A stretch of DNA of 29,412 nt from a virus (taxonomy: Duplodnaviria; Heunggongvirae; Uroviricota; Caudoviricetes). The stretch is taken from the IMG/VR virus record IMGVR_UViG_2617270990_000002; one strand, given 5' to 3'. A program made the position numbers. Shown here piece after piece: positions 1 through 3,000 of this stretch; position 1 is the first letter of the stretch, and each line of letters begins with the position of its first letter.

Positions 1-3000
1 TGCTAAATCACGTCAGCGCTGGCTGTTTTACGCGTATGACAGGATACGGAGGACAGTTGTGGCGCACGTTTTCGGTGAACGCACTCTGGCCACACTGGAG
101 CGTCTTCTGAGCCTGCTGTCGGCCTTTGAGGTCGTGGTATGGATGACGGATGGCTGGCCGCTGTATGAATCACGCCTGAAGGGAAAGCTGCACGTTATCA
201 GCAAGCGTTACACTCAGCGCATTGAGCGACATAATCTGAATCTGAGACAACATCTGGCAAGGCTGGGACGGAAGTCGCTGTCGTTCTCAAAATCGGTGGA
301 GCTGCATGACAAGGTCATCGGGCATTATCTGAACATAAAACACTATCAGTAAGTTGGAGTCACTACCCAGTAACTCCGGGTATGAACTGCGCAATACACC
401 AGTCCGGTTATATACAGCCCAGACAGTTCTTTTTATTCTGGCAGCAATATCCTTAACCGGGGTGGATGAATAAAGCGCAATCAGCAGCGCATCTTCTTCA
501 GGTGTCCACGGACGGACATGAGCGGGGGCGCGACCTTTTAGTCCCATGGGTTGTAATTTCATCATGCATCACCCCCTGACTCGCTTTTCAGCAGCATAAA
601 ACTCATCAGACAGTATTTCGGTCATTTTCTGTTTTGCGGGTTTTACGCCGCACTGAAGGTAAATCACATCGTCAACGCAGAACCACTTCACAGGGCCAAA
701 CAGGATTGCCGAGAAATCAATACCCAACCAGAACAACAGCGCATCGGTTCTGGCATACGTGACGGGCGAATATTCACGCCACAGACTGTTCAGTTCATCA
801 GAGGCAACACGCAGGGTTTTAGGGATACGTGATGTGCGCGGTGTGCAGCTCCAGCCATTCGACGCAGTCGGTTTTCGCCATAAGTCGCGATGAAAAGGAT
901 ATTTGTCCTCCGTAAAACGCAGTCCCTTAAAGTAAAATCCACTGATACCGGATACAAATACCGACCGGCACGCAACATTCAGCACGGCCTCAAGGCGTTT
1001 TGCCTCATCCTTAACTTTCTGGCAGTCCTGCTGGTATTTTTGCCACGCAGCCAGCGCGGAAGGGTTTGATGTTTTAAAGAACATTACGCCACCTCCGCAG
1101 ATATCCCGGCAGGCGCTGCTGTCCGGTCAACAATCAGGTAGCGCAGAACATGTTCAGTGATATTCCAGCCGCTTAAACCGCAGATAATGACGCCCAGGCG
1201 TATGTCGATATACGCCATCACAAACTGGGGCACGCCTTCTTTCATGGCCTGCTCATCAACTTCAGCCACCACATAAACGGTTTCACAGGTCAGAACGCCC
1301 TGAGCAAATTCCCACGCCATCGACGGAATATCATGCCCCTCAATCCATGGCAGGGATTTTCTGAAGCCGCACCACTGAACATCATCAGCCGCAGATTCCT
1401 GGCTGCATTTGCGACGAACCGGCTGCACCGGGCGGGGGCGCGGAATATCATAAAAACCGTTACATTCCGTCAGCACGCCTGCATCAACCGCATCACGCAG
1501 AAAATAAACCATGGAGGATGGCGGCATATTCATTTTTTCAGCCAGTACACCGCAGGTCAGGCGGCCATAAATACACAGCCAGTTTTTAACCCCTTCAAGC
1601 ACTTTTGCATCAATCATGATTTATTTCCCCACCACATTATTAATGACGATATAAACGTATTTCATATTTCTTAACCCTTATTTTCTGTTTTCAGGCGCAA
1701 GCAGTCCCCTGACGCGAGCGCCATAATTAAAATGAAGTGATATTTAATTGATTAATGTGGTGTTATTTATTCAGTCCGGCGTCCTGTTCAAAAGGCTCGA
1801 CATAAAAACTTTCAGCGCCTTTATTCACCTTGATACCGGCAATGCCTTTCACAGCATCCGGCTCCGCCAGGACGGCTTCCTTGTTCACTTCCTCTTTCGT
1901 GCGGATGAAACGCTCAAGCCCCATACGGCGCAGCATTTCAATCACACCTTCCACATCACGGCTGACGCTGCATGATGGCGTTCCCAGCCGCCATGACACC
2001 GTTCCGGTGGTCAGATTGGCTGTTTTGGTTTTGCCGCCGTTCGTCAGCTCATCACGGTTGGTTTTGCACCAGTCCTGAATCCCTTTAAAAAGCACTTTGA
2101 TTTGCTTTTTAAGATTTTCAATCTGCGGCGTATAACGGGCGGTGATTTCTGCCACTTCGTCATTCATCGCCGTTTCCAGGCGCAGCGCCTCTCGCTGAAT
2201 ATCTCCCAGGGTGCGGATATCACGGCTGACTTCTTCCCGGGTCTGCGGTGCCGCCTCGGCTGCGGCCTTTAATTTTGTAACGCGTTTAGCCATTTTGTTT
2301 TTCCTTATTGCAGTGTGCCTGATGCTTTATGCACGCGGTGGCGTTTAATGATGGCATCCGCTCCAAAAGACTGTGCAGATGCCTGAAATTCCGCTGAGAG
2401 AAACTGAATAATTGCAGGACTGTGATACTGGAGAATACTTGCATAAACGTCACAGAGTGACGTCGGCCTGTTATCCGTATCACGTTCTGTTTTCACATCC
2501 ACTCCAATCTTTTCATGCACTTCAACACAGTCATTGCCTGCCAACTTTTCGTCATGCGAAACATGATTAAATTCAAAAATAACGCGTACTTTGCTCATGG
2601 AATTACCCCTGTTGATTAAATTCATTACCGTTAATAACCCCGGAAGCCATGCCTCTGTCTTTCATGAATGCACTGGCTTTCATTGCCACAAACTCTGCGA
2701 AGTTTCTGCTTTCTGCCAGCATAACCACCCCAAAAATCATGGCGGGTCCATTATCTTTCTTCTTTATTCCGGTTGAACGTATATCCAGACTTACCCCTCT
2801 GTGCGTGCTGCCATCAGAGTTTTTGCAGATAACATCTTCCTTGTATTCGAAAATAATGCGTACGACTTTACTCATCCTCTGGTCCTCGTTCTGTTTGGAT
2901 AACTGACCCGGCGTCTAACCTCACGGCAGAACCGAATCATGGCATTAAAGGCTTCTTCCTCCGTCACCGCTTCCGGTATCCCCGGAACCAGTAACTGCTC

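Follow-up and report, generated by a model that had tools for sequence, protein, structure and literature searches.

An IS1 right end adjoins a truncated early gene of a Mu-like prophage lying in gpJ of a Qin-type lambdoid prophage of Escherichia coli

The window analysed here is a stretch of 29,412 nucleotides that comprises the entire draft contig JNSB01000064.1 of E. coli 3-105-05_S1_C3, assembly GCA_000705005.1. We are highly confident that in this window the right repeat of an IS1 element lies against codon 66 of an early gene of a Mu-like prophage, that the Mu-like element lies in turn within the tail-tip gene gpJ of a Qin-type lambdoid prophage, and that both prophages are defective. 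The two junctions on which this interpretation depends, 367/368 and 7957/7958, were mapped base for base by comparison with uninterrupted relatives. The sequence-only reading had proposed a three-level nesting, with IS1 in a Mu-like prophage in a lambdoid prophage, and the present analysis of sequence matches partly supports it: one flank is in place for each of IS1 and the Mu-like element, whereas for the second flanks we found none assignable to this lineage.

The contig begins within IS1, the right-hand part of which (1-367, plus strand) spans the transposase frame's 3' part as well as the right terminal inverted repeat. The C-terminal 97 codons of the transposase (InsB part; 59-352, plus strand) match PF03400 (DDE_Tnp_IS1) at profile positions 35-131 of 131 with E=5.9e-51, and window 1-367 is matched along its whole length, with 100% identity, by IS1 copies from numerous complete E. 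coli genomes. As read from the sequence, the right terminus is ...GTTGGAGTCACTACC with its last base at 367, and the terminal inverted repeat ...AAGTTGGAGTCACTACC is present at the boundary. On the other side, eight complete genomes have Mu-like prophages that match positions 368-3000 with 100% identity, and all of these alignments begin at 368, which agrees with the terminus assigned earlier at 367 and leaves every base of the junction accounted for. The flank to the right of IS1 starts with CAGTAACTC, the 9 bp that are predicted to be duplicated under a simple insertion. Since the contig stops within IS1, the far side of the element is out of view.

The gene interrupted at this junction encodes a SANT/Myb-like protein, of which the window retains codons 1-66 of 183 (368-565, minus strand; nucleotides 1-198 of the gene). 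This segment contains the first Myb-like repeat only, ends in ...SSYPELL and is 100% identical to positions 6001-6198 of the related locus L001, where the full gene occupies 5647-6198 on the minus strand. In the relative JE86-ST05, whose Mu-like prophage occupies NZ_AP022815.1 808000-846623, the intact gene has 552 bp and encodes 183 aa (WP_000977058.1, annotated as 'SANT/Myb-like DNA-binding domain-containing protein'). The remaining 117 codons, two thirds of the gene, are absent from the window. The truncated gene matches PHROG 323 ('transcriptional regulator, D5-like') with E=2e-52, and its Pfam matches to Myb and HTH domains are sub-threshold. No homologue of the cut gene was found in phages Mu, D108 and SfMu at E<=1e-3, hence no function can be borrowed for it from Mu genetics.

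The open reading frame does not end at the junction. It continues into IS1 as a chimeric 92-codon ORF (287-565, minus strand) that joins 66 native codons to 26 codons of the IS1 right end before reaching a stop; the sequence-only reading had likewise described the last gene of the operon, an HTH-like one, as keeping 66 native codons and then reading into IS1. That reading had also named what would overturn it, a naturally short and complete HTH gene with IS1 in intergenic DNA. This alternative now has a negligible probability: the stop codon of the window ORF is located only within IS1, relatives matching the window at 100% as far as the junction run 117 codons further, and all full-length members of the family have 178-187 aa, as seen in the E. 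coli and Salmonella homologues. The cluster of the full-length 183-aa protein comprises 447 sequences from 998 contigs. The SANT/Myb-like gene is destroyed, its second Myb-like repeat and C-terminal HTH being gone from this position, and the 92-codon ORF should be annotated as a chimeric pseudogene product and not as a genuine small HTH protein.

Upstream of the cut gene, the early, semi-essential operon of the Mu-like element has the order ner, A, B, kil, gam, gp11-like, gp12-like and then the SANT/Myb-like gene, in agreement with annotated relatives (MuA, MuB, Ner-like protein and divergent repressor). The Gp12-like gene (569-1084, minus strand) is identified by PHROG 2314 and by PF26885 on an identical product in L002, the Gp11-like gene (1084-1617, minus strand) by PF25754 (Gp11_C, E=5.7e-41), and the host-nuclease inhibitor gene gam (1763-2293, minus strand) by PHROG 491 (E=4.6e-70), PF07352 and the annotation of L001. 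The MuB-like AAA ATPase (3646-4587, minus strand; PF09077, Phage-MuB_C) and the MuA-like transposase (4661-6748, minus strand; PF02316 and PF09299) are also so annotated in a relative. They are followed by a small Ner-like HTH regulator (6751-6981, minus strand; PF13693, HTH_35, E=1e-21) and by a divergent repressor-like gene of the XRE/CI type (7166-7711, plus strand), for which the HTH_3 and Phage_CI_repr matches fall just under the Pfam cut-offs and the L001 counterpart is an XRE family regulator. The repressor, A, B, kil and gam genes are intact. From gam onwards the operon runs into the cut gene, with overlaps or gaps of 0-3 nt among its last three genes.

The left, repressor-side end of the Mu-like element (7712-7957) terminates in ...CACCTGGTTATA at 7957. 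The same terminus adjoins gpJ in the window, an rhs gene in JE86-ST05 and another locus in SRR29904427, and in complete genomes it is found beside citD, paaA, xdhA and others. Such a conserved terminus at unrelated loci indicates transposition and not site-specific integration. The right end, the late head and tail genes and the short target duplication are seen in relatives, and the window includes the left end only.

Immediately beyond this end, positions 7958-9684 (minus strand) encode the N-terminal 575 2/3 codons of the lambdoid tail-tip gene J, which from 7958 are 100% identical to the intact gpJ of PigCaeca_1. The intact protein has 1137 aa, and codon 576 of the gene borders the left end of the Mu-like element at 7957; the interrupted ORF (7945-9684) gains the residues ITR and a stop out of the Mu end. 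The ATAC at 7958-7961 is the predicted 4-bp target duplication, in line with the 4-bp duplications observed for the Mu-like elements of JE86-ST05 and LC727881, and at the far side distal gpJ is predicted to read ...ATAC directly followed by TATAGCGCGG... of the Mu right end. The outermost layer continues with the rest of the Qin-type late region (9685-26345, minus strand; tail, head and terminase genes). Over 18.4 kb it shares 99.6% identity with the prophage that ETEC6335 and others carry at the Qin locus (ydfJ/pinQ/relBE), and its gene order by Pfam is lambda-like (J, I, K, L, M, H, T, G, V, U, Z ... portal, terminase).

The IS1 junction is situated within 367 nt of a contig end and beside a repeat, a setting in which mis-assembly might be suspected. 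Yet the same junction is common to three isolate assemblies (JNSB, JNMX and JNLZ) and three metagenomes (ENA ERZ27307110, ERZ27287013 and ERZ27287107). The three isolates were assembled independently and share the junction with differing IS1 overhangs of 367, 304 and 269 nt, and the three MEGAHIT-style (k141) metagenome contigs show it identically, which makes an assembly artefact extremely improbable. The JNMX and JNSB sequences differ by 2 SNPs per 10.5 kb. The exact-protein look-up of the chimeric ORF returned six further contigs, all of them stopping within IS1, and the exact chimeric product is called on JNMX01000022.1, JNLZ01000052.1 and the ENA metagenome contigs. The junction was not found in 5,426 complete E. 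coli genomes, the GTDB representative genomes, IMG/VR or the JGI metagenomes.

Two explanations can be offered for what follows beyond IS1. Simple insertion is the commonest outcome for IS1, and in general this favours a clean nested insertion, in which IS1 would have duplicated 9 bp on entry, and what is left of the ~38.6-kb Mu-like element (~31 kb, with its right end) would continue just beyond the contig end, as would the distal half of gpJ; we regard this as a serious possibility that falls a little short of being probable. On that reading the contig break comes merely from IS1 being a repeat. The same gene took such an insertion in SRR29904427, where a 9-bp duplication, CAAATGGGG, is present. 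In addition, E. coli 3-373-03_S1_C2, from the same project and isolate collection, has a 1.6-kb contig (JNMI01000134.1) whose first base lies 12 nt beyond the insertion site and which covers what remains of the cut gene up to gemA. This contig might represent the opposite flank of this very event in a sibling strain, but it is without IS1 sequence and is unlinked to the junction. A clean insertion also predicts a 96-aa distal ORF (M88 to stop), which is not on record in any of the six junction-bearing assemblies; the look-up of this ORF (P0023) in the gene index found it only in other samples. Nor did the look-up of seven of the eight candidate products joining a gpJ C-terminal fragment to the Mu right end yield one from this lineage, the sole match being an unrelated genome with a split J. 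Among the other candidates considered, the distal-ORF variants P0024 and P0030 come from unrelated assemblies, and the distal fragments P0032 and P0022 belong to other events.

The alternative is an IS1-associated deletion or rearrangement, by which the DNA beyond IS1 would not be the rest of the gene and the Mu late region would have been partly or wholly lost or moved; its chances appear to be about even or marginally better. It is favoured by the absence of the distal ORF in the six assemblies, given that the same look-up recovers both flanks in SRR29904427 as a positive control, although this argument comes from a missing entry in a gene index that may be incomplete. A second point in its favour is that a related Mu-like prophage has lost 17.65 kb internally in association with an IS1A copy, which is oriented with respect to the early operon as IS1 is in the window. 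Furthermore, the Qin-type tail-fibre gene of PigCaeca_1 holds an IS1 in the same orientation, 365/367 identical and 3.4 kb beyond the Mu target. Against this last point, the closest Qin relatives are without the tail-fibre IS1, and none of the 10 listed of the 24 contigs with the IS1-adjacent tail-fibre fragment is from the junction assemblies. The IS1 isoform at window 1-367 is common among complete E. coli genomes, and because of this the likeness to the PigCaeca_1 copy says little. The window IS1 may be the resident Qin tail-fibre IS1 seen in PigCaeca_1, followed by an adjacent deletion, an idea that is not supported, even with a fitting orientation and 99.5% identity. Under a deletion, distal gpJ, lom and the tail-fibre genes were possibly lost too, and IS1 either keeps one original junction or made a new one by intramolecular transposition. 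Taken together, the indirect evidence tilts slightly in favour of a deletion whose boundary IS1 would mark, over a clean insertion.

The Mu-like element had transposed into the Qin-type gpJ before IS1 arrived. As IS1 is strongly polar, gemA, mor and all early-operon DNA distal to it would be disconnected from the early promoter, and IS1 may additionally have removed this distal DNA, including gemA and mor. In phage Mu there is no middle or late expression without Mor, and by analogy the Mu-like element would be unable to make phage on that account. The overall picture is ordinary prophage decay. Both the Mu-like and the Qin-type prophage on this contig are to be scored defective; as the contig end is a repeat-induced break, prophage-completeness tools will misjudge the region. 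The importance of the case is slight beyond correct annotation, and it illustrates neatly how mobile elements decay in layers in an E. coli lineage from a diarrhoeal study.

The closest classical parallel is offered by the Mu X mutants of Bukhari and co-workers from the 1970s, which were reportedly survivors of induction carrying IS1 in or near gene B. They resemble the present case in having IS1 within the early operon of a Mu-type prophage, whose lytic development is crippled while the prophage stays. Here, in contrast, IS1 has its place ~3 kb downstream of that position, past gam, and the gene hit is an accessory one without a match in Mu or D108; A, B and kil are intact, and the insertion is not known to have been selected. 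Nesting of the same Mu-like family in lambdoid prophages is seen in the Stx-converting prophages LC727881.1 and LC727895.1 of E. coli O157, which are annotated with a 'region of the inserted Bacteriophage Mu-like phage'. The early region of these elements has 93% identity to that of the window, their counterpart of the cut gene has 70-72% identity, and the termini are near-identical (left end GGTTACA there versus GGTTATA in the window), with a 4-bp duplication there. However, the O157 elements are full copies of ~40 kb that show both of their ends and contain no IS1, their host is an Stx phage and not a Qin-type prophage, and their target is not gpJ.

Two further systems show IS1 in related Mu-like prophages. 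The 17.65-kb internal deletion associated with IS1A occurs in E. coli 2018-166 (NZ_CP075632.1) and 2012EL-2448, where, as in the window, the right end of an identically oriented IS1 abuts the distal early region, and A, B and gam are retained. Unlike the window, this type has an IS1 isoform of 90.7% identity, a junction ~1.3 kb further downstream just before gemA, an intact SANT/Myb gene, and both flanks visible, by which the deletion is proven. In SRR29904427 (Logan assembly; L008, L039), IS1 with the same right end ...GTTGGAGTCACTACC lies in the same gene of the same Mu-like family, whereas the insertion is at codon 93/94 and in the opposite orientation, and the Mu-like copy is at a different chromosomal site; the 9-bp duplication and both flanks are recovered there, with 24.5 kb of late region following on.

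Altogether, the IS1 events in this Mu-like family include two independent insertions in the 552-bp gene and an IS1-bounded deletion starting 1.3 kb downstream, which hints weakly at repeated IS1 strikes on the distal part of the early region in this family. One might go further and propose that the SANT/Myb-like segment is a recurrent IS1 target, perhaps selected for severing gemA, mor and the late functions from the early promoter, a proposal that we consider improbable. If it were true, such IS1 hits would tame a dangerous transposable prophage, leaving a remnant with immunity, transposase and Gam.

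The first 367 nt of the window form the right part of an IS1 element (1-367, plus strand), which is 100% identical over its full 367 nt to annotated IS1 copies in many complete E. coli genomes, contains the IS1 transposase ORF (59-352, plus strand; PF03400, E=5.9e-51), and terminates with ...GTTGGAGTCACTACC at position 367. The adjoining region 368-3000 is 100% identical to the Mu-like prophages of eight complete genomes, and all of these alignments begin at 368. Since IS1 ends at 367 and the Mu homology begins at 368, the boundary is set from both sides with zero unexplained bases, in agreement with the IS1 terminus assigned by the sequence-only reading.

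The gene cut at this boundary follows gam and the Gp11-like and Gp12-like genes. Its intact counterpart in the Mu-like prophage of JE86-ST05 is 552 bp long and encodes a 183-aa protein annotated as 'SANT/Myb-like DNA-binding domain-containing protein' (WP_000977058.1). By comparison with the latter, the window retains codons 1-66 (565 to 368, minus strand), exactly the number counted previously, after which the frame enters the IS1 terminus and meets a stop at 287, 26 codons on. A naturally short, complete gene, with IS1 in intergenic DNA, is excluded because the E. coli and Salmonella homologues are 178-187 aa long; the HTH-like gene is thus interrupted, as had been proposed. The cluster headed by the full-length protein comprises 447 sequences from 998 contigs. 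This protein shows a match to PHROG 323 ('transcriptional regulator, D5-like'; E=2e-52), along with sub-threshold Pfam matches to Myb-type repeats at residues 19-53 and an AsnC/HTH_10-type helix-turn-helix at residues 130-164, while by eye residues 73-113 (FTPDEDKFI...) look like a repeat of the first Myb-like unit (WTPEEDALL...). The IS1 break falls after this first unit, and the 92-aa truncated product, devoid of two of the three DNA-binding units, is almost certainly non-functional. No homologue of the protein was detectable in phages Mu, D108 and SfMu.

A 209-aa protein of Shigella flexneri (WP_154812948.1) is a fusion in which residues 1-113 of the Gp12-like protein are joined, at an 'ART' motif common to both, to the last 96 residues of the SANT/Myb-like protein; by its sequence it reflects an internal deletion of this region in Shigella Mu-like remnants. 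In many draft E. coli assemblies the contig ends within the first 27-56 codons of the gene (annotated 'partial'; cluster P0036-P0049), probably due to several diverged Mu-like copies per genome, so that such breaks alone are no evidence of an IS.

The Mu-like part of the window (368-7957) encodes MuA, MuB, a Ner-like protein, a divergent repressor-like protein, Kil and Gam, and represents 7.6 kb of an element that measures 38.6 kb in JE86-ST05. Its end at 7957 reads ...CACCTGGTTATA; the same terminus adjoins unrelated DNA elsewhere, including an rhs gene in JE86-ST05 and another locus in SRR29904427, and lies near citD, paaA or xdhA in complete genomes. One terminus joined to unrelated DNA in different genomes is, at the sequence level, the signature of transposition. 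The family has termini TATAGCG...GGTTAT/CA and an apparent 4-bp target duplication, CACG in JE86-ST05 and GATG in LC727881, where it is also annotated (read at window 7950-7961, 4997-5007 of locus L014, 13572-13582 of the JE86-ST05 locus, and 1674-1677 and 41646-41649 of locus L045); in phage Mu the duplication is 5 bp long and the ends are TG...CA.

From 7958 onward, the window matches gpJ of a lambdoid prophage at 100% identity; the protein has 1137 aa when intact and is broken here after 1727 nt (codon 576). The left end of the Mu-like element therefore lies in gpJ of a lambdoid prophage, which supports, on this side, the nesting claimed from the sequence alone. The truncated J product (579 aa; 7945-9684, minus strand) occurs in exact form on one public contig only, JNSB01000064.1 (29,412 bp; assembly GCA_000705005.1, annotated for E. 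coli 3-105-05_S1_C3), so that the window corresponds to an entire draft contig. The remaining 18.4 kb share 99.6% identity with the prophage at the ydfJ/pinQ/relBE (Qin) locus of ETEC6335 and others.

Both the IS1/Mu and the Mu/J junctions were found in two further isolate contigs, JNMX01000022.1 (E. coli 3-475-03_S4_C2; 2 SNPs over 10.5 kb against the window) and JNLZ01000052.1 (mosaic in its J/I region), and in the ENA metagenomes ERZ27307110, ERZ27287013 and ERZ27287107, with a single contig from each. This recurrence in separate isolate and metagenome contigs shows that the junction is real and inherited within a lineage. It was absent from complete E. coli genomes, GTDB representatives, and IMG/VR and JGI metagenome contigs. 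All contigs with the junction end 88-367 nt inside IS1. Against window 9535-10540, JNLZ01000052.1 is 96% identical, with an indel, in gene I and the 5' portion of J and near-identical elsewhere, which suggests that lambdoid tail modules recombined later than the Mu and IS1 events.

Other members of the family illustrate two outcomes of IS1 activity. In the Logan assembly of SRR29904427, an independent IS1 lies in the same gene at codon 93/94, in the orientation opposite to that in the window. Here both flanks were recovered by the approach applied to the window, providing a positive control: one locus ends with ...CAAATGGGG|GGTGATGCTGCC, the IS1 left end, and the other, a 24.5-kb contig, starts with ...GTTGGAGTCACTACC|CAAATGGGG and goes on into gemA, mor and the lysis genes. 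The target duplication CAAATGGGG is a clean 9 bp, and beyond the IS1 the Mu late region carries on. In the complete genomes 2018-166 (NZ_CP075632.1) and 2012EL-2448, IS1A (2599-3366 of the 2018-166 locus) stands where a related Mu-like prophage has lost 17.65 kb, an interval that starts just ahead of gemA, reaches the DNA-circularisation gene and takes in gemA, mor, the lysis and head genes and some of the tail genes. This IS1A has no target duplication and is oriented relative to the early operon as in the window; the sequence identifies the event as an IS1-associated internal deletion. Thus, two independent insertions fall in a 552-bp gene, and a deletion boundary lies 1.3 kb downstream in a third lineage. 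Target preference or selection could account for these events, though three of them prove neither.

A simple insertion in the window lineage would leave the rest of the gene beyond the IS1 left end, and predicts a second contig on which that end is followed by a copy of the 9-bp sequence CAGTAACTC and by the gene's last 351 nt, giving a 96-aa ORF from M88 to the stop. By exact look-up in the public collection, this product is present, but in none of the junction-carrying assemblies. Its sole isolate source is JNMI01000134.1, a 1,603-bp contig of E. coli 3-373-03_S1_C2, another isolate of the same collection. This contig is free of IS1 sequence; it opens 12 nt past the insertion point on the distal side and breaks off 216 nt into gemA. 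It may show the other flank of the same event, carried by a sibling strain; however, no link to the junction was found, and because many draft assemblies break in this gene it may instead represent an unrelated break, a third event, or a break from multiple Mu-like copies. We give simple insertion somewhat less than an even chance. The lack of the distal product in the junction-carrying assemblies points instead to an IS1-associated deletion or rearrangement, towards which we lean slightly, and the 17.65-kb loss demonstrates that IS1 is also capable of deletion. Candidate products joining the C-terminal part of gpJ to a Mu right end were looked up, and none from this lineage was found. The window IS1 might also be the resident tail-fibre IS1 of the same Qin-type prophage, as in PigCaeca_1 (4585-5352 of the NZ_CP039298.1 locus), with which it shares orientation and 365 of 367 positions. 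However, this IS1 is absent from the closest Qin relatives, the window isoform is common, and the contigs listed for the PigCaeca_1-type flank include none from the window lineage. The 587-aa C-terminal tail-fibre fragment adjoining the PigCaeca_1-type IS1 is common to at least 24 assemblies, and therefore that insertion is old and inherited.

In intact relatives, the SANT/Myb-like gene is followed by three small ORFs, gemA, mor and the lysis genes. The mor gene of phage Mu is the distal part of the early transcript, and Mor is needed for the middle promoter, so that C and every late gene depend on it; insertions of IS1 have strong polar effects. The distal region, if still present, would be severed from the early promoter by IS1, and if deleted would be gone. 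Either way, by Mu and IS1 biology, the Mu-like element should be unable to make phage because its distal genes, including mor, are severed or lost, with the repressor, ner, A, B, kil and gam genes intact. The lambdoid host prophage, without functional J, would also be defective.

Disruption of prophage genes by IS elements is already familiar, as is the nesting of one prophage in another, and the window adds a further instance. In phage Mu itself, early-region IS1 insertions are reportedly classical, known as 'X' mutants. The same Mu-like family is annotated within lambdoid Stx phages in LC727881.1 and LC727895.1 (GenBank), with a 4-bp duplication as in the window family, whereas the left end is GGTTACA in these records and GGTTATA in the window.

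The Qin-type synteny ends at about 26345. The region beyond it (26346-29412) encodes a P2-like Ogr-type zinc-finger protein (26444-26692, minus strand), a P2 gpD-like tail protein (26731-27978, minus strand; PF05954) and an IS4-family transposase (28430-29380, plus strand) that runs to the contig end. With its left edge inside IS1 and its right edge inside the IS4-family gene, the contig is bounded by IS elements on both sides.
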